The notes under the pieces are model-generated. The model worked only from the letters and a program-made list of their open reading frames with translations, was not told the origin of the DNA and ran no database searches. A stretch of DNA of 13,082 nt from Candidatus Thorarchaeota archaeon (GTDB lineage Archaea > Asgardarchaeota > Thorarchaeia > Thorarchaeales > Thorarchaeaceae), in NCBI GenBank assembly GCA_003345545.1, contig PRDH01000004.1:1-13082 (forward strand), written 5' to 3'. Shown piece after piece: positions 1-11,624 of the stretch (its first letter is position 1; every line of letters starts with the position of its first letter). The position numbers and the translations under genes were made by a program.

Positions 1-218
1 GAACGCACGCTCTTGAAGTGTTCTTGTCCTGCGAGATCCCATATCTGAATGCTTACATCATGGCCGCCATGAAGCTGCATCTTCTTGACTGCAAAGTCAG
101 CACCGATGGTGATCATGTAGTTAGCTCGGAATCCTTCTCCCATGTAGGTCCTACGGAGACTGGTCTTTCCGACGCTTCCATCTCCCATGAGTACGACCTT
201 GAATAGTGCAGTTACCAT
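1..218 (-). CDS. Rab-like small GTPase (Ras superfamily), N-terminal 72 aa; truncated by window edge
   Basis: Manual translation of the reverse complement from ATG at 218: MVTALFKVVLMGDGSVGKTSLRRTYMGEGFRANYMITIGADFAVKKMQLHGGHDVSIQIWDLAGQEHFKSVR. G1 GDGSVGKTS, G2/RabF1-like TIGADF, G3 WDLAGQE. SD-like GGGGTG at 225-230. Not in the supplied ORF track. Confidence 0.95.
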   Translation of the reverse strand, partial: MVTALFKVVLMGDGSVGKTSLRRTYMGEGFRANYMITIGADFAVKKMQLHGGHDVSIQIWDLAGQEHFKSVR

Positions 219-238
219 CTCTTGCACCCCGAACGAGT

Positions 239-261
239 TAGTATCCACTCTTGGGATACTA
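239..261. repeat. Perfect 8-bp inverted repeat TAGTATCC-N7-GGATACTA upstream of the Rab-like gene (operator or hairpin)
   Basis: Arms at 239-246 and 254-261, 20 bp upstream of the start codon. Function is inference. Confidence 0.55.
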
Positions 262-380
262 GGGCGATGAATGTTATTTCCGCTATTTGAGTCTATGCCG
301 ATTGAATAGAGGATGAAGAACAACCCCTTGGACTTGGTTGCTCACATGTGTAGGTGTTATCAAGCATGAACCACTCATCA

Positions 381-1306: not shown

Positions 1307-3585
1307 CGAGCACAACTGGATGGCTTCTGGACGCCAATGTGGACAACGAGAAGCAGGCACTGACCCTCTGGATCAAGGCGGAGGGAAAGACCAGAGGCTA
1401 CACCTATCGCGGGTTCAACCCCTCAGTCTTTGTCAGTACAGACATGATTGGAAGCAGGGACTGGACTGAAACAGGCATCCTGCAAACAGTCCTCGAACAC
1501 CCAAGGGTCGTTGACGCAGAAATTGTACACAGATACACAAGTGTCTATGATGAAGAGAAGACACCGGTCCTACAGGTGTTCACTACACCAGATGCACTTC
1601 AGGAAGTGGCAAAGGATTTTGAGCTGCTGCCGGGAGCCACAGTATTCCATGCGGATATTAATCCAGTTCAGCAGTTCTTCATAGCCAATGACATGTTCGC
1701 TTTTGGGCGTGTAGAGTTTGAGCTGAGAGGGGATGAGGTCATCAGTATCAGAGGCCTTGACAAGCGAGAGAACCCAGAGTATGACATTCCAGAACTTGAG
1801 ATGATGGACTTTGAGGTGTTCATAGCCACAGAGCAGATCTTCCCCAAGATGGAGGATAGAATCCAGCATATTGAGGTCTATCATAGAGGTGGGACCGTAG
1901 ATATCCAAGATGATGACGAGGGAGAGATTCTCAGACACTTCCAAGCTGTCACTGATGAGATAGACCCTGATGTGATAATCAGTAGAGGAGGAGATGATGA
2001 CCTCTTTCGATACCTCACCATACGATCCAAGGTCAACGGAGTGGAACTGACACTATCCCGAGACAAGACACCATTGAACGTGATCTTCACTGAACCTCAG
2101 TCGTTCTGGCAATACAATCGAATCATGTTCAGGTCAGGAACGCATGTCATACTGAACGGGAGAGTTCACGTTGACCGAGGAAGGACAGGCATGCATTTCT
2201 ATGCGCCAATGGGGTTGGAGGGAATCGTAGAGAGCTGCAGGCTTGCTCTGGGCCGACCGCACAGGGTCTCACAGATGACGATTGGTGCGGTGAACGCGGC
2301 GGTGCAGTTCTACAACGCCTACAAGATGGACATTCTCATACCACCTATCAAACGGAATCCAGAGTTCTTGAAGACAGTCACTGAACTGACATCCATAGAC
2401 AGGGGAGGTTTGATCTTCCAGCCAAGACCAGACATCTATGAGGACATTGCAGAGTGCGATTTCTCATCGATGTACCCAACACTCATGGTCACCAGGAATA
2501 TCAGCCCGGAAACAATCTGTACGAGAACCAAGTGCCCATATGATTACCAATACTGCATCGAGATTCCTCAGCAGAGCTTTAGAATATGCACACACAGGAG
2601 AGGGATAGTATCCAAGTCATTGGAAATGCTTGTCAATAGACGGACTGACATCAAGAAACTGATAGAACAGGGACGCGACACTGAGAAGTATGAGATTATG
2701 CAGAACACTCTGAAGGGAGTGCTGGTCTCGTGTTTTGGATATCTCGGATTCAAGAACGCAAAGTTCGGAAGAGTTGAGGCGCATACCGCGGTCACTGCAC
2801 TTGCAAGGGAGGTCATGCTTGAAACCCAAGAGATTGGGGAGGAGATGGGGCTTGAGATGCTACACGGCATTGTGGACTCAGTCTGGTTGAGGGCAAATAA
2901 AGAGAGAGTGGAATACAAGGCAGTTGTGGAATTCTGCAAGCGCGTGTCCGAGAGAGTCAACATCAAGATGTCCCCAAAAGGAGTCTACAAATGGATGGTC
3001 ATCCCATCGTCACGACTGCATCCATCAATTGCACCACTAAATCGATACTATGGAGTCTACAGGAACGGGGCAATCAAGACGCGAGGAATAGAGACCCGAA
3101 GAAGGGACACCTGTCTCTATGTCGGCGACTGCCAGATGGCCATGATTAAGACACTAGCACAAGCTAGTGATAAGGCCGGCTTTCTACAGCGTATGCCCGA
3201 GGCATATGAGGTCTGTCGTAGCTACATGGATAGACTCTATGACTATGATGTCGATCTCAGAGACCTCATCCTGAACGCAAATCTGACTAGAGACCCTCAT
3301 GAATATCGTGCCGTGTCAAGAGCCGCTGTTGTCGCTCAACAGCTTGCCAAGGCGGGACAAGAGCTACATGCAGGGCAACGGGTCAGGTACGTCATGGTCC
3401 ATGCAGACTCGACGAATCCATTACGGAGAGTGAAAGCACTGGAACTCTTCGATGAGTCGACAAGATATGATCCAAGAGCGTACTCAGACCTGTGTGAACG
3501 TGCCTTTGAGAATCTGATTCCAGCACAGTACCTCGGGCAAGTGAAAGGAAGAGATCCTGGCCAGCTGCAACTGATTACTCAGTGA
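1303..3585 (+). CDS. polB2: Family B DNA polymerase, archaeal PolB2 (Dpo2) group
   Basis: Motif A DFSSMYP, motif B KGVLVSCFGYLG, motif C HGIVDS (YGDTDS with the first Asp replaced, the PolB2 signature), KTRGIE.RRRD, degenerate exonuclease motifs. ORF track start is GTG 1339, but the frame is open from 1270. CTG at 1303 follows GAGGAG (1291-1296) and restores the N-terminal GWLLD strand. Confidence 0.92.
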   Translation: MTSTTGWLLDANVDNEKQALTLWIKAEGKTRGYTYRGFNPSVFVSTDMIGSRDWTETGILQTVLEHPRVVDAEIVHRYTSVYDEEKTPVLQVFTTPDALQEVAKDFELLPGATVFHADINPVQQFFIANDMFAFGRVEFELRGDEVISIRGLDKRENPEYDIPELEMMDFEVFIATEQIFPKMEDRIQHIEVYHRGGTVDIQDDDEGEILRHFQAVTDEIDPDVIISRGGDDDLFRYLTIRSKVNGVELTLSRDKTPLNVIFTEPQSFWQYNRIMFRSGTHVILNGRVHVDRGRTGMHFYAPMGLEGIVESCRLALGRPHRVSQMTIGAVNAAVQFYNAYKMDILIPPIKRNPEFLKTVTELTSIDRGGLIFQPRPDIYEDIAECDFSSMYPTLMVTRNISPETICTRTKCPYDYQYCIEIPQQSFRICTHRRGIVSKSLEMLVNRRTDIKKLIEQGRDTEKYEIMQNTLKGVLVSCFGYLGFKNAKFGRVEAHTAVTALAREVMLETQEIGEEMGLEMLHGIVDSVWLRANKERVEYKAVVEFCKRVSERVNIKMSPKGVYKWMVIPSSRLHPSIAPLNRYYGVYRNGAIKTRGIETRRRDTCLYVGDCQMAMIKTLAQASDKAGFLQRMPEAYEVCRSYMDRLYDYDVDLRDLILNANLTRDPHEYRAVSRAAVVAQQLAKAGQELHAGQRVRYVMVHADSTNPLRRVKALELFDESTRYDPRAYSDLCERAFENLIPAQYLGQVKGRDPGQLQLITQ

Positions 3586-4927
3586 CCGCGTGAGCCTGCA
3601 TTGCAATCCTCGGTTTCAGTTCACGAATGGGAATGCCGGTTTCACGAGATACACGCTCCACATCATCATCTTCGGGCTTGATGCTGATGATACTTCCATC
3701 TGTTGTGCGAGAGACTTTGACGCGAACCATGTATTCCTTGTCATCGATATTCAGGCCACAGACGATTGTTTCGCGCGCTGCCTTCAGTCGTTGCCAAGTC
3801 GAGTATCGAATTCCAGTTGTCCCCAGATGGCGCATCATGACCTCTGCAACACTCTTCAGACCTGTCTTTGCAGCAATGACTTTCACCAAGAAACACGGTC
3901 GACTCTTCTTGCCAAGAGCTGGTATGACAACGACATCATAGGCCAATCCTTCTACGAGTAGCGTATCAAAGAGGCTACCGAGGGTTTCACCGTCCACATC
4001 ATCGACATTCGTCTCAATGACAACCACTTCGTCGGCACTCCACTCGTCAAGCACTTCCGAACGTTCCTCAGCCTTTGATTTCGAATCCGGTGGTGCCTTT
4101 GCCTCCTTCGCAAGCGCTCTCTTTGATTCTTCTTTTGGAGGTGAAACTGGCTTCTTTTCTTCTTGAACGACAAGCTCGCCAACTACTATCCGCATCATAT
4201 TCGGGATTGCACCCAAGTCACGGGTGCCAAAACCAATTCCCTGATTCTGCGCCACAAAACCATCGTAGGCATCCACATAGACTTTTGTGATGGCTGCCAA
4301 GAGGGCAGCTCCTGTTGGAGTCAGTACTTCGGTCCGGGCCTCGCCATTATGGAAGAGCATGTCGTGCGCTACAAGAATCTCAGCCACTGCAGGTCCCGGA
4401 ACTTCAAGGTCCCCATGCTCAGTTGCAATTGTACCGCTGCCGACCGCAACGCGCGTTGAAACAAACTCGGCATCTTCCAGAAGTCCAGCGCGCTCTAGAA
4501 GATATGCGGTACCCACGAGATCTAACACTGTATCAATGGTTCCGGTCTCATGAAGATGCAGTTCAGATATTGGCTTGTTATGCACCCTGCTTTCTGCCTG
4601 GAAGATGATTGTCAGAGCTTCCTTAGCAAGATTCTTTGCTCGAGGCGCAAGTTCAATCTCTTCTGCAACAGCCATCAGGACTTCCATCATCGAGTCAGGA
4701 TTGAGTCGTATAGCGGGATTACGCGTGATCTGCAGCTGCCGACCCGTGTATCCTGAATGAGACCTGGAGGTCACGGATAGTCTGAAGGAAGGATCGTATA
4801 TCAGAAGACTGGCAGCGACAGGCAAAAGAACGTCATCTTCGCCAATAAGATCAGTCAGCGCAGATAGGAACATGTCCCCAGAGGCGCCTGCATTCGCGAC
4901 ATCGATTAGAACTCTTTTCTTAGCCAA
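3575..4927 (-). CDS. larC: LarC-family nickel insertion protein (nickel-pincer cofactor biosynthesis), full-length LarC1+LarC2
   Basis: Motifs GASGDM, AE..VH, HLHETG..D, HG.L.VP.PA, TPTGAA, ETNVDD, KK.RP, KPE.DD. Start re-called at TTG 4927 (AGGAG at 4939-4943); the ORF track start 5011 adds 28 non-homologous residues. 3' end overlaps polB2 by 11 bp. Confidence 0.88.
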   Translation of the reverse strand: MAKKRVLIDVANAGASGDMFLSALTDLIGEDDVLLPVAASLLIYDPSFRLSVTSRSHSGYTGRQLQITRNPAIRLNPDSMMEVLMAVAEEIELAPRAKNLAKEALTIIFQAESRVHNKPISELHLHETGTIDTVLDLVGTAYLLERAGLLEDAEFVSTRVAVGSGTIATEHGDLEVPGPAVAEILVAHDMLFHNGEARTEVLTPTGAALLAAITKVYVDAYDGFVAQNQGIGFGTRDLGAIPNMMRIVVGELVVQEEKKPVSPPKEESKRALAKEAKAPPDSKSKAEERSEVLDEWSADEVVVIETNVDDVDGETLGSLFDTLLVEGLAYDVVVIPALGKKSRPCFLVKVIAAKTGLKSVAEVMMRHLGTTGIRYSTWQRLKAARETIVCGLNIDDKEYMVRVKVSRTTDGSIISIKPEDDDVERVSRETGIPIRELKPRIAMQAHAVTE

Positions 4928-5060
4928 ATTCGTCGTAACTCCTGCCTGTACTCCACCGTGATGATAGAACACTGCCTGACCTGTTTTTCTTTCGAAGAGG
5001 GACACATACACTCATCGATGAAGTGCACATATTTCATATGACTGGTACTAAATAAGATTG

Positions 5061-5840
5061 TCAGCTCGTATTACCTTGACGCCATTGATTGAAGATAGCC
5101 ATATACATACACTCAGTGGGAGGAATCCACATCTCAGACGAATCAAATGACTCGTCAACAAACTCAGCAGGAGCGTCACGTATCAATGCCGCTGGAATGG
5201 ACTCATTGGACTCGCCAATGACAGCTGTGCATGCAGAGGCCAGATTATCGGCCACAGCTCTTCTCGTAATTCGCAACACATTTCCGAAGAGGTCCTTGCG
5301 TCCGCGATCATCAGCGACAGGTTTGAAACCTGCAACTCCCAGAGCCATGCCGATGTTTCCAAGTCTCAGTGGCTGAGTTCTGCTATCAATAATCATGACG
5401 CCAATGGTCTTCCCTGTCCTCTTCTTCACTTCTGCTCTTAGTCGCTCAGCACTTGCACGGGGATTCAATGGTAGCAGTGATGCGTATCCTGGCGGCGCAT
5501 TCGATTTGTCAATTCCCGCATTGGCCATCAATGTGTTGTTCTTTATTGTGAGGATGACATGAGGGATGCCTCCCAGTATTTCGTCTGCCTCCTGTATGAT
5601 CAACTGAGCAATCTCAGGGATCAGCTCATACCTCTTTGCAAGCTTGGCAGCCTCCTTTGAAACCTTGATGTCTGACAACTTCACGATACGTCCTTCCGTT
5701 GTCCCAAGTGGAGTCTCAGCAATGGTGATGATGTCATTGTCCAAAATCTCCATGTCTGCAAGAGTAAGGCTCTCAAGTAAGACATCAAGGATGTTATCTT
5801 TCTCAGTAATGATGCGAGTCTTGATAGGGTACACAAGCAT
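5061..5840 (-). CDS. cofE: Coenzyme F420-0:L-glutamate ligase family protein
   Basis: Motifs DIITIAET....EGR, ANAGIDKSNA, LLP.NP..SA, IIDS...PLR.G, D.RG.KDLFG..L.IT..AVAD.LA, GE..E.IP. Start re-called at ATG 5840 (MLVYPIKT). Confidence 0.9.
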   Translation of the reverse strand: MLVYPIKTRIITEKDNILDVLLESLTLADMEILDNDIITIAETPLGTTEGRIVKLSDIKVSKEAAKLAKRYELIPEIAQLIIQEADEILGGIPHVILTIKNNTLMANAGIDKSNAPPGYASLLPLNPRASAERLRAEVKKRTGKTIGVMIIDSRTQPLRLGNIGMALGVAGFKPVADDRGRKDLFGNVLRITRRAVADNLASACTAVIGESNESIPAALIRDAPAEFVDESFDSSEMWIPPTECMYMAIFNQWRQGNTS

Positions 5841-5927
5841 TATTGATCGCCAATCAAGACAGACATTGATGTCAAGATAAAGACTGTCAATGAACATCAT
5901 GGACTGTCGTCCAAGGATTCAGAATGA

Positions 5928-7319
5928 TTACGATTTCCTCTTCGCTTGAAGCTTCATCCTCTCAGTCATGATACATCGGTCGCCTTTGCGACCGCCCATT
6001 GGATTGTGTGTCGTCCCCATTGAGTTCATGCACCTTGCAGCTACTGCAGCTCCCATTGCAAGGCCGTCCTCCACAAAGACGAGTTGGTGCGATGCCGTCC
6101 ATAGGCTTCCAGTATTCAACCGAAGCCCACTGGTAATCAATTTTGGTTTCTGGCCGGTCGTGATTGCCCTACCTGTCAGTCCCAAGGAGGTTTCATCAAG
6201 AACTAGACCCTCGGTATCAGCAATGCTTACGATGCGCTGCAGAATCCATGCCTGAAGACTATCGAATAGGGGGAGCAGATACGCTCCATCCTCTGAACCA
6301 CTGAATCTGGAGCCGAATCGCTCCAGCGCAGTGAGGTCAGCGTCCACGCCGATTAGAACGATATTCGACTCTTCTGCGGCGTCTGTGTTGACTGGTACTG
6401 TTCCAAATCGAGACGATCCTCTTGGGACCCGTTCGATCCGGATAATCCGCTTTACTTGTTCGAGCCGCTCCGGGGTGACATCTATCTTTGACAATCTGCC
6501 GCTATGGGGCAAATCAAGAACGCACCCTGTTTCAGATTGAACTAAACCGGACCCACGAGCGATTGCATCCGGTATGGCGCCAGCCAAACCGGCAAACGAC
6601 CCGATAGTCCGTGCGTACGGATATCCGTTGTCAGTGATCCGGCCAGCGAGTGTGGTCCCGAAGTCCAAGGTCATCACAGGGTTCCTGAAGTCGATAGCAG
6701 TTCCCTTGACTGCGCCCTTGATTCCTGCAGTCACCAGTTCGCCTTCCATTTCATTGGCAACGATTTCTGTATTTGCTGGCGGAAGCGAAGACGCAACCGC
6801 CCCATCAAAATACACTTTCTTCAGCCACGTGAAGTCACGCAGGCCTGTGGGCAAGTTCTTGGCTGATATCGACGCAGTCATTTTTCGAGGAGGAATGCCT
6901 GCTTGAATACATCCATCTGCAAGAGCCTGCACAATGACTCCGACATCAGATGGATTGGCGAAGCTAGCAGTGACCCCTGTGGAACGAACAGCAAAGTGAA
7001 GATCACGTTCGATATCGATTCCTGCCCGAGATGTGGCAGCAATCAGCACACTGGAAACCAATTCGGCGACTGATTCCCGTGTCAATTGCACTCCGAACAG
7101 AGTTTCGCCGAATACCTGTTCATCCGTACGCGGAGTTCTCACGTCACGCGTCATCCTAACTTCCTTCTCGATTTCGAATATCTCCGCGGTTTCCAGATTC
7201 GTTGTGACCAGAATGCACTTTGTTGTTGTATTGCCAAGTTCAACAGAGGCGACTGTATAGAATGGACCCATCCTGAGCGATGATAGTCCGATTGCCTTTG
7301 GTCTCAAGACGCCTCGCAT
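5928..7319 (-). CDS. Methanogenesis marker protein 14 (DUF2114), ASKHA-type ATPase-like
   Basis: VASVELGNTTTKCIL, VRSTGV.A.F, VANEMEGELVTAGIK, DFRNP..TLDFGTTLAGRI, DGLA.GAAV.ARCMNS.GT...P.GG..G..C match this family as I recall it. Start re-called at ATG 7319, 8 nt after AGGTGA (7328-7333). Confidence 0.88.
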   Translation of the reverse strand: MRGVLRPKAIGLSSLRMGPFYTVASVELGNTTTKCILVTTNLETAEIFEIEKEVRMTRDVRTPRTDEQVFGETLFGVQLTRESVAELVSSVLIAATSRAGIDIERDLHFAVRSTGVTASFANPSDVGVIVQALADGCIQAGIPPRKMTASISAKNLPTGLRDFTWLKKVYFDGAVASSLPPANTEIVANEMEGELVTAGIKGAVKGTAIDFRNPVMTLDFGTTLAGRITDNGYPYARTIGSFAGLAGAIPDAIARGSGLVQSETGCVLDLPHSGRLSKIDVTPERLEQVKRIIRIERVPRGSSRFGTVPVNTDAAEESNIVLIGVDADLTALERFGSRFSGSEDGAYLLPLFDSLQAWILQRIVSIADTEGLVLDETSLGLTGRAITTGQKPKLITSGLRLNTGSLWTASHQLVFVEDGLAMGAAVAARCMNSMGTTHNPMGGRKGDRCIMTERMKLQAKRKS

Positions 7320-7334
7320 GATTGCCATCACCTA

Positions 7335-8270
7335 TCAGAGAAGTTTCTTGAATGGATGACTATCTCCAGGTTCAATGCCGAACTCCAAGTAAGCGGATTC
7401 TGCCGCAAAAATGTCTGCCAGTGCAGCAACAGGGAACACACGATTAGCATTCTCTATCGGGCCATAGAGCAAGAAATCAGCACCCATCATTTGCACAATG
7501 ACATTCGATGCTGCATCAGTTGTGAAATATGCCTCACGGTCGGTCTTCTTGTGTTTCCTCAGCCAGGTCCATGACGAAGGGGCGTTGTGCACCCCAGACC
7601 CGGTTGGTAGGCCATACACCGTCTTTGAAACAAAGGTGAAGGCCGCCGCAGAGCCTGCTCCAGCACCCATGGCTGTGACAGCTGTGTCGATGAGAGGCTT
7701 CGTCACACCTATGTCACGACACAAGTCTAGGAGGCCCTTCTCTCTCTCCAGAACAGGCTTCTCAAGAACTGCTCGCCGCCCTGCAATCGAGGGGTCCTGG
7801 GGATTGAAGGCTAGAACAATAGCAGATTCGTGATGCATATCTCTCAGGACCTCAATCTCACTAGGCGTTACAGACACGTTGATAGAGTTGTAGATAGCTT
7901 TGTCAGAGAGACCTACTTCTTCGGAGTGCTTCAATCCAGCAATTCGGACTCGAGGTTCCGTCGAGTCGATAAGAAACGGGGCATCAGACAGCTTGGTGAC
8001 AAAATCAATGTAGCGGACCACAGCCTCTTCAGACTCTGCGAAAATCTGCACAAGTGCAGGATTGCCTGTCATATCAGACATCTCATCCTGTTTTAGCAGG
8101 AGGTTTCTTGCTGAGTTCTTGTCAAAAATGCCTCTCTCCGCACTCTCAACAATCTTGTGCCCGCTGTAGAAGATGGTTCCTGCAAGAACAGTTGGGGTCT
8201 CGCCGAAATTTCCTCCAATCTTGACTCCGCCAATGTTATGGATTATTTGTTCTTTCTCGAAGACAAACAA
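7335..8270 (-). CDS. mtrH: MtrH-family methyl-pterin:corrinoid methyltransferase (paralog 1, canonical-like)
   Basis: MFVFEKEQ....IGGVKIGG..GE.PTVLAGTIFY.GHKIV, PFLIDST, IYNSIN, GSGVHNAPS.W.WL, GADFLLYGPIENA. TTG start with GGAGG SD inside the end of mtrA. Confidence 0.92.
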   Translation of the reverse strand: MFVFEKEQIIHNIGGVKIGGNFGETPTVLAGTIFYSGHKIVESAERGIFDKNSARNLLLKQDEMSDMTGNPALVQIFAESEEAVVRYIDFVTKLSDAPFLIDSTEPRVRIAGLKHSEEVGLSDKAIYNSINVSVTPSEIEVLRDMHHESAIVLAFNPQDPSIAGRRAVLEKPVLEREKGLLDLCRDIGVTKPLIDTAVTAMGAGAGSAAAFTFVSKTVYGLPTGSGVHNAPSSWTWLRKHKKTDREAYFTTDAASNVIVQMMGADFLLYGPIENANRVFPVAALADIFAAESAYLEFGIEPGDSHPFKKLL

Positions 8271-8275
8271 AGATG

Positions 8276-8962
8276 CTATGCCTCCTTGCCCACGAGAATA
8301 GTGCCAGTATCGCTTTCCCTCACTTCGATGACGATAGAGGAGGGGTGTTCTGTGACAATCGCGTGAGCCTCTTGTTTGGCCATTAAGGAGCTGTTACTCT
8401 CTAGGAGCAAATCGTACTCGGGAAGGATAATGATGGTGGCAGATGAAATCGCTCTCCGTGCTTCTCCAGATGCAGGTTTGAACTCAATCCATAGTGCGTC
8501 CTTTGAAAAGAGTCCAGGATTCTGCCCAGCAAGCTGCTCCACTTTCTCTGTAATCTGACTCAGACTGAGCACATTGATCATATCTATGAGCTCAATCTGC
8601 TCCCTAAATCGATCAATGCCTTCCGGTGGCACATTCTCGATATAGGGTATCGCCCCCTCAGCACCAATTATCTTTCTTGTATCTGGATCTACACCGTTAA
8701 GGAATAGCGCACGTAGAGACCTGCCCGTCAAATGACCAGGAACCTCGGGACCAGCAACGATGAGATATCGAATGTTAGGGTTTGATATGATATTAATGAT
8801 GATGCGTTCAATACCAATATTCTCAGTCTTGCACGAGCCTGCAATCGAATACTGTCCAGGAATCTCAATTCGTTTTCCCAGCGTGCAAATAGCCACACAA
8901 TGTGAGGGGTCATTGACATCAAAGTCGCCAGCGACCGGTGGCCATTCATGATCGTTGTTCAT
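8276..8962 (-). CDS. mtrA: Soluble MtrA/MtxA-like corrinoid protein with C-terminal extension and no membrane anchor
   Basis: WPPV.GD, VAICTLG, CKTENIGIE..I.NIISNPNIR, G.EV.GH.TG (cobamide-ligating His77, codon 8732-8734), IIGA.GAIPYIEN, RFR.Q. No hydrophobic helix at the C-terminus. AGGAGG SD at 8971-8976. Confidence 0.92.
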   Translation of the reverse strand: MNNDHEWPPVAGDFDVNDPSHCVAICTLGKRIEIPGQYSIAGSCKTENIGIERIIINIISNPNIRYLIVAGPEVPGHLTGRSLRALFLNGVDPDTRKIIGAEGAIPYIENVPPEGIDRFREQIELIDMINVLSLSQITEKVEQLAGQNPGLFSKDALWIEFKPASGEARRAISSATIIILPEYDLLLESNSSLMAKQEAHAIVTEHPSSIVIEVRESDTGTILVGKEA

Positions 8963-8974
8963 CTCTTCAGCCTC

Positions 8975-9892
8975 CTATTCAAATGTTGGCGGGATGAAGA
9001 GAGGTCTCTCAATGCCTAGAACATTGATTGCCTCCGCAACGGCAGCTGCAATAGCATTCGAAATGAGCGCAACTGCTGCAAACACTTCTTTGGTCCGTAT
9101 CATTGAACCATACATGATTGAGTCCGTAGCGAATAGCTGGGCGGCCACAGTGGATGCAACTACTGTCGCCATATGTGTAGATTCATCATCAAGACCGGGT
9201 TGCTTAATGAATCGCCAGGCCGAGGGAGCATTGTGCGGGGCAAGGCAGGTTGGAAGGCCCAGTTCTGATTTTATTGCTATCATTGTTCTGAGTTCGAGGC
9301 CATATCCTGCACCAACAGGCATAGTTGCCGGGTCGATGAGCACCTTTTCCATCGCCAGGTCTCTTGCTGTTTCAAGCATATCCCCGACAGTCTTCATTCT
9401 ATCCTGCAGAGACGTCGCGCGAGGTGACCAACCAAGAACAACAGCCATATTGAGCCCGCTGTCTTTCAGGACCTGCTTTTCATCGTCTTTCATTGACAGA
9501 TTGATTGAGTTGTAGATCATGCGTTCTTGAAGACCGGTTTCATGACTGTATTCGATAGCTCTTACCCTTGCATCGGCATTAGTGGATTCAAACATTATTG
9601 GACCACTGAAGTTTTCCGAGAGCCAAGCGAGATGATTCTCCATTGCAGCAGGAGTCCTCCCAAATGCCTGAATTATGAACGGATGGCCTGTCTTCTCGAC
9701 CATATCCATGGCGATGTCAATCCAATCCAAAGCCAGGCTCTTATCGAATGTGCCCTCTTTTGTGTCCTTAACGATGGGCTGTCCCTTGAAGAAGAGACCT
9801 CCAATCAAAACGGTCGGATTCTGCCCCGGGTGGCCACCAATCTTGACTCCACCGAAGTCGTATGTCTGTTGTTCCTTCTTGAAGATGAACAA
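8975..9892 (-). CDS. mtrH: MtrH-family methyltransferase (paralog 2, divergent)
   Basis: MFIFKKEQ....FGGVKIGG.PG.NPTVL, IYNSIN, LIDP, HNAPSAW, YG. Aligns by eye end to end with paralog 1. TTG start after GAGGTGA overlapping the metF stop. Confidence 0.88.
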   Translation of the reverse strand: MFIFKKEQQTYDFGGVKIGGHPGQNPTVLIGGLFFKGQPIVKDTKEGTFDKSLALDWIDIAMDMVEKTGHPFIIQAFGRTPAAMENHLAWLSENFSGPIMFESTNADARVRAIEYSHETGLQERMIYNSINLSMKDDEKQVLKDSGLNMAVVLGWSPRATSLQDRMKTVGDMLETARDLAMEKVLIDPATMPVGAGYGLELRTMIAIKSELGLPTCLAPHNAPSAWRFIKQPGLDDESTHMATVVASTVAAQLFATDSIMYGSMIRTKEVFAAVALISNAIAAAVAEAINVLGIERPLFIPPTFE

Positions 9893-9899
9893 ATCGCTT

Positions 9900-10832
9900 T
9901 CACCTCACTTCTGGCCTGGGATAGAGGCCCGCACTCTTCACAATCTCTGGGATACTCTCTTCCCAGTCTATACCCATCAAGTGCACACCGTGTATCCCCT
10001 TTATGCGCCTGACTGCCCTAATCACTTCTGTCGCTATCAAGAGCCCTTCTGCCCGAGTTGCCTCACGCTTCTTTTCACCCTTAAGACCCCTACCCGCAGC
10101 CTCTAATCGTTTGATGACCTCTTCTGGAATCTTGATACCAGGCACAGACTTGTTCATGAAGTTGGCCATGATGGGACCCTTGAGTGGAGTGATGCCAGCA
10201 AGCACTCTTAGCTTCAGGTCAGCTGCCTTGTCCATGAAGGTCTCTAATCGGGCCGTGTCAAAGATGGCTTGAGTCTGGAAGAACTTGGCTCCCGCGTCAC
10301 GTTTCTTTTCTGCTCGTATCACATGTAACTCCAAGGGATCCGCATAAGGATTGAAGGTAGACCCCAAGAAGAACTCTGGTGTGCCCTCGAGTTTGTCACC
10401 AGCCAAGTCAGTACCACCCATAAGATGGCTCGCCAGTCCAAGCGCCTGAATTGAGTCTATGTCATAGACGGTCTTCGCTTCGGGATGTGAACCAAGAAGG
10501 GTATGGTCTCCAGTGATGAATAGAATGTTGCGGATGCCAAGCGCATATGCACTGTAAAGCTCGCTCTGTATGGATATTCTATTCCTGTCACGTGTCGACA
10601 TCTGCATGATTGGCTCTGCACCAGCATCTAGGACAAAGTGAGCACAGGTAGCACTGCTCATGGATGGTATACCACGTATGTTGTCGGTGATGTTGATTGC
10701 ATCGCAGTAATCCATGACTAGACGCGTTCGCTCAAGAACAAGCGTCTTGTCTGCTCCTCTGGGAGGCCCGATCTCAGATGTCACGACGAAATCGTTGGAC
10801 TCCAATACATGCATCAGCTTTGTTCCTAACAG
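9900..10832 (-). CDS. metF: Methylenetetrahydrofolate reductase, MetF (MetVF-type large subunit)
   Basis: FVVTSEIGPPRG, DAINITDN, EPIMQMSTRDRNRI, NILFITGD, VYDIDS, KK.DAGA.FFQTQ..FD, GVHLM. ORF track start is ATG 10814. Upstream in-frame CTG at 10832 lies 9 nt from AGGAG (10842-10846). Confidence 0.93.
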   Translation of the reverse strand: MLGTKLMHVLESNDFVVTSEIGPPRGADKTLVLERTRLVMDYCDAINITDNIRGIPSMSSATCAHFVLDAGAEPIMQMSTRDRNRISIQSELYSAYALGIRNILFITGDHTLLGSHPEAKTVYDIDSIQALGLASHLMGGTDLAGDKLEGTPEFFLGSTFNPYADPLELHVIRAEKKRDAGAKFFQTQAIFDTARLETFMDKAADLKLRVLAGITPLKGPIMANFMNKSVPGIKIPEEVIKRLEAAGRGLKGEKKREATRAEGLLIATEVIRAVRRIKGIHGVHLMGIDWEESIPEIVKSAGLYPRPEVR

Positions 10833-10909: not shown

Positions 10910-11569
10910 TCACTCACTGGGCGTGTGAATGATATTTCTAGGACTCTGAGCAGGCCTCCAATCCCGAATCTCCCAGATTCTGGAGATGTTGTCCAACTTA
11001 TCTAGCTTCTTCAAACGGTCAAATATCAACTGCCAGACACATTCCGTGTCGGCATCGCGTTCACATCTGCCATCCATCGATCCGCCGCAGGGACCATTCA
11101 GAATTCCCTTGGAACAGCGAGCAATCGGGCAGATACCCGCAGTGAGGTCAAGGATGCATTCACCACACATGGCGCAGCGTTCTTTGTGGTAGAATCGCTC
11201 GGGCATTGTTCCGAGGAATTTGGAGTCCGTGGCAGGAAAAGACTCCTTCTCGGGAAGGATTTCAGAGAGATTCTGTGTCGCGACGCCACATGCCTGAACG
11301 AGAAATGCATCTGCTTTGTCAATGATTGCCCTTTTTTCCTCTATCTCTTTCTTGAGAGCACGCTCATCACATATCCCACCCTCGACGAAGACAGAGCCCA
11401 AGACTTCCTTTCCATTCTTGGTCAGAAAGTCCTCCATGTCCTCCAACTGGAGAATCCCGCCGACATCGCAGAGCTGCGCGCATCCAGAGTCGCCGAATAA
11501 TACGATTCGGTTGTACCCATCAAGCATCTCAAGGATCTTTTCCTTTGATTTTAGGTTCATGACGATCAT
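10910..11569 (-). CDS. metV: Methylenetetrahydrofolate reductase Cys-rich small subunit MetV (MTHFR C-terminal-like domain protein)
   Basis: MIV..K..E.I...L, GDSGCAQLCDVGG, ACG, ERCAMCGEC.L..T.GICPIARCSKG.LNGPCGG..DG.CE.D...CVW; directly upstream of metF. Start re-called at ATG 11569. Confidence 0.9.
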   Translation of the reverse strand: MIVMNLKSKEKILEMLDGYNRIVLFGDSGCAQLCDVGGILQLEDMEDFLTKNGKEVLGSVFVEGGICDERALKKEIEEKRAIIDKADAFLVQACGVATQNLSEILPEKESFPATDSKFLGTMPERFYHKERCAMCGECILDLTAGICPIARCSKGILNGPCGGSMDGRCERDADTECVWQLIFDRLKKLDKLDNISRIWEIRDWRPAQSPRNIIHTPSE

Positions 11570-11624
11570 AAGCTGCAACCCTACATTCAGTGATTCTGCG
11601 ACCAAGACCTAAAAATCTGTGCTT

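Follow-up and report, generated by a model that had tools for sequence, protein, structure and literature searches.

The soluble MtrA of Thorarchaeia carries a conserved C-terminal tail that resembles the MtrH-binding arm of MtrB

The soluble corrinoid protein MtrA encoded in a 13,082-nucleotide stretch of Thorarchaeial DNA (referred to below as the window) lacks a membrane anchor. In place of the anchor, as a preliminary description of the DNA had claimed, the protein has a tail that resembles the N terminus of MtrB; the tail is conserved, and the likeness lies in its first ~27 residues. We propose, with a probability that we put at roughly two in three, that this MtrB-like arm gives soluble MtrA one built-in tether for MtrH. 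The docking is inferred from homology. The docking element of MtrB, a stalk subunit that has been lost, would in this case have moved onto MtrA, which would account for how a membrane-free MtrA–MtrH system that is widespread among Thorarchaeia, and has so far only been listed as ‘MtrAH remnants’, could remain assembled. The proposal names precise candidate residues, E182 of MtrA and R202 of MtrH paralog 1, and it bears on the linking of folate- and methanopterin-bound C1 units in Asgard archaea and on the evolution of Mtr.

What is new here is the MtrB-like tail on MtrA; the MtrAH genes of the lineage were already known. In the literature that we searched, MtrAH genes are reported and the tail is not described. 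The presence of MtrA and MtrH in Thorarchaeia was noted, and a methyltransferase role suggested, in 2022 (PMC9635834); that article concerns the same gene set and lineage, and the text consulted describes neither the tail, nor its likeness to MtrB, nor the complementary residues of the two MtrH paralogs.

Architecture of the Thorarchaeial MtrA

The corrinoid domain is recognized by the Pfam MtrA family (PF04208) at 196.1 bits over residues 4–166, compared with a gathering cut-off of 25. This core is 42–55% identical to solved MtrA domains, on which its AlphaFold2 model superposes at about 1 Å (54% identity and an rmsd of 0.9–1.3 Å in the case of PDB 5laa), and H77, which aligns with the cobalt ligand His84 in the GH(I/L)TG motif of 8q3v_A, is invariant in 115 orthologs. 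The protein scores 191.3 bits with the equivalog model TIGR01111, below the cut-off of 249.15, and its alignment to NF010654 (PRK14053) spans residues 5–195. Like canonical methanogen MtrA (TIGR01111; 5laa, 5l8x, 8q3v_A and 9qtr_A), the Thorarchaeial protein has a corrinoid domain with a His ligand followed by a flexible linker; unlike canonical MtrA, it has no C-terminal stalk helix and no membrane anchor. Positions of the features discussed here are collected in Table 1.

Table 1. Positions of the genes and protein segments discussed, numbered along the window
Feature	Position	Strand	Basis
MetV-like DUF5981	10910-11605	-	window gene row
MetF/MTHFR	9900-10814	-	window gene row
mtrH paralog 1 (305 aa, divergent; upstream of mtrA)	8975-9892	-	Pfam MtrH 238 bits
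mtrA, soluble corrinoid protein MtrA, 228 aa	8276-8962 (stop codon counted)	-	Pfam MtrA 196 bits
Corrinoid-binding MtrA domain, residues 4-166	8465..8953	-	Pfam MtrA; model pLDDT mostly > 90
Flexible linker, residues ~162-174, KPASGEARRAISS	8441..8479	-	low pLDDT, variable sequence
MtrB-like arm, residues 177-203, IIILPEYDLLLESNSSLMAKQEAHAIV	8354..8434	-	profile and fold similarity to MtrB
Invariant Glu182 codon	8417-8419	-	within MtrB-like arm
Conserved C-terminal beta-hairpin region, residues 204-228	8279..8353	-	predicted strands, invariant residues
mtrH paralog 2 (311 aa, canonical-like)	7335-8270	-	Pfam MtrH 388 bits; TIGR01114 396.7 bits, above cut-off
Methanogenesis marker 14/DUF2114	5928-7331	-	584 bits
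CofE	5061-5900	-	window gene row
LarC	3575-5011	-	window gene row

The linker, which includes KPASGEARR at residues 162–170, is predicted to be disordered (AlphaFold2 pLDDT < 50 at residues 164–175), and its sequence varies between MtrA orthologs. It is followed by the tail, for which the preliminary description gave the correct coordinates (8279–8440 on the minus strand, coding for residues 175–228) and quoted two segments that are both found in the translation: TIIILPEYDLLLESNSSLMAK at residues 176–196 (nt 8375–8437) and SIVIEVRESDTGTILVG at residues 209–225 (nt 8288–8338). The tail has no transmembrane helix, again as described: its highest 19-residue Kyte–Doolittle mean is 1.07, whereas the anchor of canonical MtrA reaches 2.24. 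AlphaFold2 predicts no helix of any kind in the tail and models residues 176–228 as five short strands, at a pLDDT of only 68–78. Three of the strands are in the arm (residues 176–180, 185–188 and 193–196) and two form the hairpin (210–217 and 220–227).

This region is a conserved module and not junk. Across 115 sequences, eight of its residues do not vary at all (P181, E182, P207, E213, G220, T221, L223 and E227), so that conservation among orthologs, one of the checks suggested at the outset, is found; close orthologs of this MtrA are, moreover, all 228 aa long.

Comparison of the tail with MtrB and other Mtr subunits

We assembled an MtrB reference set from genes fetched from the mtr operons of Methanobacteria and Halobacteriota, comprising 43 and later 98 sequences. 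The N-terminal MtrB pattern given in the preliminary description is real and is present in these sequences. When a profile of 167 distinct Thorarchaeial tails was compared with the 43 MtrB sequences, hhalign aligned tail residues 177–197 with MtrB 8–28 at a probability of 75% (P 2.6e-5, score 29.8), while 200 column shuffles of either profile averaged 11 ± 2.3 and never exceeded 21.8. A separate hhalign comparison using alignments derived from DNA references gave a probability of 81% (P 1.2e-5). Against the 98-sequence profile the alignment covers 27 columns, pairing MtrA 177–203 with MtrB 8–34, and reaches a probability of 92.5% (P 4.9e-7); its score of 37.6 lies about 12 SD above that of 200 column shuffles (10.3 ± 2.2, maximum 19.2). 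The signal rises with the diversity of the MtrB set, and control comparisons of the same tail profile with MtrF, MtrG and the canonical MtrA C terminus gave P values of 0.15–0.67. The profile similarity to MtrB anticipated in the preliminary description is thus found for the first segment, well above chance; the window's own copy of the arm is degenerate, reading LLLESNSS where its relatives have L.LDP..S.

Searches of whole databases also point to MtrB, with E-values that are each non-significant when taken alone. Among 177,635 distinct PDB sequences, the best match to the tail profile is M. marburgensis MtrB (8q3v_B, E 0.22), aligned between tail positions 7–26 and MtrB 7–26. When a template-free model of the tail by itself was compared with 350,542 PDB chains using Foldseek, M. 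mazei MtrB chains ranked 2–4 (E 2–3) and had higher probabilities than any other chain listed, and the model superposes on the 27-residue MtrB chain 9qtp_E with an rmsd of 1.5 Å over 26 columns. When 68 tails were each compared with the whole of Pfam, 19 matched MtrB (PF05440), with a best E-value of 0.0029 and all scores below the gathering score of 27 bits. These matches cover only profile positions ~2–27 of 94, and any family other than MtrB was matched by at most 3 of the 68 tails.

The window's own tail gave no match to Pfam MtrB. Searches with this single sequence returned nothing meaningful from Pfam or NCBIfam and only a trypsin (phmmer, E 0.29) from the PDB, and a word-index search for short proteins that have words in common with residues 165–228 yielded no candidate. 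A search of 1.84 billion representative proteins with the tail profile gave 10 matches, all of them C termini of Thorarchaeial MtrA, and no MtrB at E ≤ 0.001, as is to be expected of a signal of ~25 residues.

The features shared with the MtrB arm (residues ~1–30; M. mazei 9qtp, 9qtq and 9qts) are a pattern of hydrophobic-strand / PE(Y/F/L) / x-L-x-L-D-P-x-(T/S)-(G/S)-h-h, a predicted three-strand unit, and a Glu equivalent to MtrB Glu9, together with an equivalent of its MtrH partner Arg211 in the neighboring MtrH paralog 1. The likeness is limited to ~27 residues. Whereas the arm of MtrB is N-terminal on a separate, membrane-anchored subunit, the Thorarchaeial arm is C-terminal on MtrA, is followed by an unrelated 25-residue hairpin and then the end of the protein, and comes without the MtrB stalk helix, the GREG motif, a transmembrane segment or a basic residue equivalent to MtrB Arg5. 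Taking all of these comparisons together, the most economical reading is that segment 177–203 and the MtrB arm share common descent.

The same mtrH1–mtrA–mtrH2 cassette occurs in a different Asgard family (locus L242, G492:C86:300-3778). The first tail segment of the L242 protein is far more MtrB-like (INLLPEFNINLDPYTGLV...), and the remainder is divergent. This tail is identical to a Methanobacterial MtrB N terminus at 15 of 30 positions (50%; BLASTP E 2e-7), and hhalign aligns it with MtrB at a probability of 90%.

The second segment behaves differently from the first. It had been read as the ‘TG.I’ half of the MtrB motif, so that the tail would hold one or two MtrB-like motifs; of these the first stands (177–203, P 4.9e-7), whereas the second (209–225) does no better than chance. 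Residues 199–228, the second half of the tail, give P values of 0.15–0.34 with MtrB, and their comparison with the first half, as an internal repeat, gives P 0.25. Residues 204–228 are not a second copy of MtrB. These values also tell against two tandem MtrB-derived tethers, one for each MtrH paralog, an arrangement suggested by the position of mtrA between two mtrH genes and by the two conserved, hydrophobic, strand-rich segments of the tail. Without a detectable relative for the second half, the suggestion of one tether per paralog falls away. In M. mazei, moreover, a complete MtrH dimer is served by one MtrB arm bound between its two subunits (PMC12774963), and a single arm is therefore enough for both. 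We therefore consider tandem tethers very improbable. The last ~25 residues make up an additional hairpin, which probably completes or stabilizes the small sheet.

A copy of MtrF is fused to MtrA in TACK archaea and ANME-1 (PMC9982363), which made MtrF a worthwhile candidate for the second half. A weak collinear signal with a profile restricted to Methanobacterial MtrF (P 0.01–0.04, reached by 0 of 150 shuffles) was lost with 78 diverse MtrF sequences (P 0.15–0.67, with 9 and 48 of 150 shuffles reaching the score) and with 39 [AF]-type MtrA C termini (P 0.3–0.9). A true relationship should strengthen as more diverse sequences are added, which is what happened with MtrB; the MtrF signal vanished, and we reject this reading. 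Comparisons with MtrG and the canonical MtrA C terminus gave P values of 0.2–0.65, and the hairpin region resembles neither of them. An MtrF-like motif, Y(K/R)xQL(I/L)ARDxKL, does occur in the MtrA C terminus of L073 (DATKWH010000131.1; L194-L238), which is of the [AF] fusion type of ANME-1 and TACK. The L073 MAG, titled ‘Candidatus Bathyarchaeia’, sits in a GTDB phylum with MtrB in 226 of 401 sampled genomes, and its NCBI label may be a mis-assignment.

MtrH paralogs and the putative docking site

In the 2.1-Å structure of the M. mazei Mtr complex, MtrH homodimers are each bound to a three-stranded sheet formed by MtrB residues 1–23, which occupies a hydrophobic pocket where the two MtrH subunits meet and is secured there by two salt bridges, Arg5(MtrB)–Asp5(MtrH) and Glu9(MtrB)–Arg211(MtrH) (PMC12774963). 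The same interface was predicted by AlphaFold2 for M. marburgensis (PMC10998594); in the M. marburgensis structure 8q3v the MtrB arm is disordered. The structure and the prediction both bear out, for MtrB, the statement in the preliminary description that MtrH is held by N-terminal segments of the stalk.

In the M. mazei MtrB sequence, Glu9 is the E of the PE motif, and it aligns with the invariant Glu182 of the tail. Alignment to 9qtp_o identifies Arg202 of MtrH paralog 1 (codon 9287–9289) as the equivalent of Arg211, and this residue is Arg in all 52 Thorarchaeial paralog 1 sequences. The corresponding residue of paralog 2 is Ala210 (A/S/G among 50 orthologs), and MtgA, which has no MtrB partner, has a Glu at this position. 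The second salt bridge has a different fate. At position 5, paralog 1 has Lys5 in place of Asp5 (Lys in 51 and Arg in 1 of 52 Thorarchaeial orthologs), while paralog 2 retains an acid, Glu5 (E/Q/D among 50 orthologs). None of the tails has a basic residue at the position equivalent to MtrB Arg5 (tail position −4), where I, M, S, A, L or T is found. Because of this, and because of Lys5 in paralog 1, we conclude that the Arg5–Asp5-type bridge is not conserved. In 102 of 166 tails, although not in the window's own, the same face of the strand carries an Asp two residues further upstream, and it is speculation that this Asp pairs with Lys5 as a charge swap. The contact residues are thus split between the paralogs, with paralog 1 retaining only the Arg211-type residue and paralog 2 only the Asp5-type acid.

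Relative to methanogen MtrA, the C-terminal stalk helix and membrane anchor are replaced in Thorarchaeia by a flexible linker and a β-strand module of ~53 residues. The arm of this module probably docks MtrA onto a dimer of the two flanking MtrH paralogs, with Glu182 pairing with Arg202 of paralog 1 as MtrB Glu9 does with MtrH Arg211; the alignment of these residues is observed, and the contact is what we infer from it. The linker of ~13 residues could then let the B12 domain swing into the active site or sites of MtrH, which would preserve the ‘tethered shuttle’ topology of Mtr minus the stalk, the membrane and the Na+ pump. Where the methanogen chain runs from B12 domain to flexible linker, stalk, MtrB arm and MtrH dimer, the Thorarchaeial linker would be joined straight to the arm. 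With the stalk and membrane parts gone, a single polypeptide would hold both the shuttle domain and the MtrH clip. An arm kept under selection after the rest of MtrB was lost in turn supports the recent finding that this arm is the MtrH anchor.

The tail could instead be a self-contained folding or oligomerization module, for example one that pairs MtrA with MtrA through β-sheets in place of the trimerizing stalk and does not dock MtrH, its likeness to the MtrB arm reflecting common descent or convergence. The five-strand sheet into which AlphaFold2 folds the isolated tail with moderate confidence is compatible with such a role, as are the failure to conserve one of the two MtrB–MtrH salt bridges and the equal conservation of a second half unrelated to MtrB. 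However, the conserved part coincides exactly with the MtrB residues that contact MtrH, Glu9 among them, and the adjacent MtrH paralog always has the partner Arg, whereas the stalk-forming helix of MtrB is precisely what is missing. We regard an oligomerization role without MtrH docking as unlikely.

Both paralogs retain the pterin-binding residues, that is, the equivalents of Asp/Glu103, Asn129, Asp196 and His-Asn229/230. The equivalent of the pterin-pocket Asp103 is a Glu in paralog 1 (residue 102, window 9587–9589) and an Asp in paralog 2.

Gene neighborhood, distribution and C1 metabolism

The window genes form a tightly packed row on the minus strand (MetV-like DUF5981, MetF, MtrH1, MtrA, MtrH2, marker 14, CofE and LarC), within which mtrH1, mtrA and mtrH2 are three separate ORFs, each with its own stop codon and with gaps of 5–12 nt. 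The order MetF–MtrH1–MtrA–MtrH2–marker14–CofE–LarC was found again in most of 68 species-level Thorarchaeial loci, and that of mtrH1–mtrA–mtrH2 is preserved in essentially all of them; the nearest proteins to those of the window likewise carry the name Candidatus Thorarchaeota. DUF2114 directly follows mtrH2 in 61 of the 68 loci, with CofE and LarC next in most, and MetF precedes mtrH1 in 59. DUF2114 is a conserved partner of this cassette, and a role in corrinoid activation is conceivable.

Such constant neighbors raise the alternative that the tail docks not to MtrH but to DUF2114, as a possible corrinoid activase, or to MetF/MetV, the more so as nothing proposed above gives the second half of the tail a partner. 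This alternative has no precedent in sequence or structure, however, and the sole detectable relative of the tail is an arm that binds MtrH, so we consider it quite improbable and retain MtrH as the proposed partner.

Of 76 genomes sampled from the window's own family, 70 have the tail module, compared with 1 of 224 sampled across 29 other Asgard families, and among the 1.84 billion representative proteins the module is found only on MtrA of the Thorarchaeial type. Other membrane-free ways to pair an MtrA-type domain with an MtrH-type methyltransferase are represented by soluble Methanobacterial MtrA paralogs and by the MtrA–MtrH fusion proteins of Atabeyarchaeia and Freyarchaeia (PMC11291895). 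The one soluble Methanobacterial paralog that we inspected has a charged tail end without the motif. In the fusions the two domains are joined covalently, whereas the Thorarchaeial proteins are encoded by separate ORFs and have a putative docking peptide.

The whole genome (92.9% complete) encodes one copy of MtrA and no MtrB. Its C1 genes include Mch of the methanopterin branch and, from the folate branch, adjacent Fhs and FolD genes, as well as the MetF/MetV genes adjoining mtrH1 (positions from the survey of Mch, Fhs, FolD and Mer: C81:14025-14957, C9:5062-7551 and C39:123542-124468). A true Mer was not found in the whole genome, where the best score is 182.5 bits compared with an equivalog cut-off of 348.7. 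This gene content is compatible with a relay of methyl groups between two C1 carriers but does not demonstrate one.

The active sites of the solved MtrH dimer point in opposite directions, and a soluble complex would leave both of them accessible. Such opposite-facing sites, together with pterin-binding residues in both paralogs, could allow methyl groups to be shuttled between two C1 carriers. A fuller scheme, which we offer only tentatively, is that MtrH1 and MtrH2 always pair with each other, as an asymmetric heterodimer clasped by the single arm, and that the tethered B12 domain shuttles methyl groups between methyl-H4folate, from the adjacent MetFV, and methyl-H4MPT. The complex might then be a relic of Mtr, soluble and without the pump, that substitutes for the missing Mer step.

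A third gene of the MtrH family lies away from the cassette (contig C37:11539-12384, minus strand; locus L240; 238 bits). Two further genes of the window are unrelated to the tail: a fragment of a small Ras/Rab-like GTPase (GDGSVGKTS...DLAGQE) at the window edge (3–323, minus strand) and a family-B DNA polymerase gene (1339–3585, plus strand).
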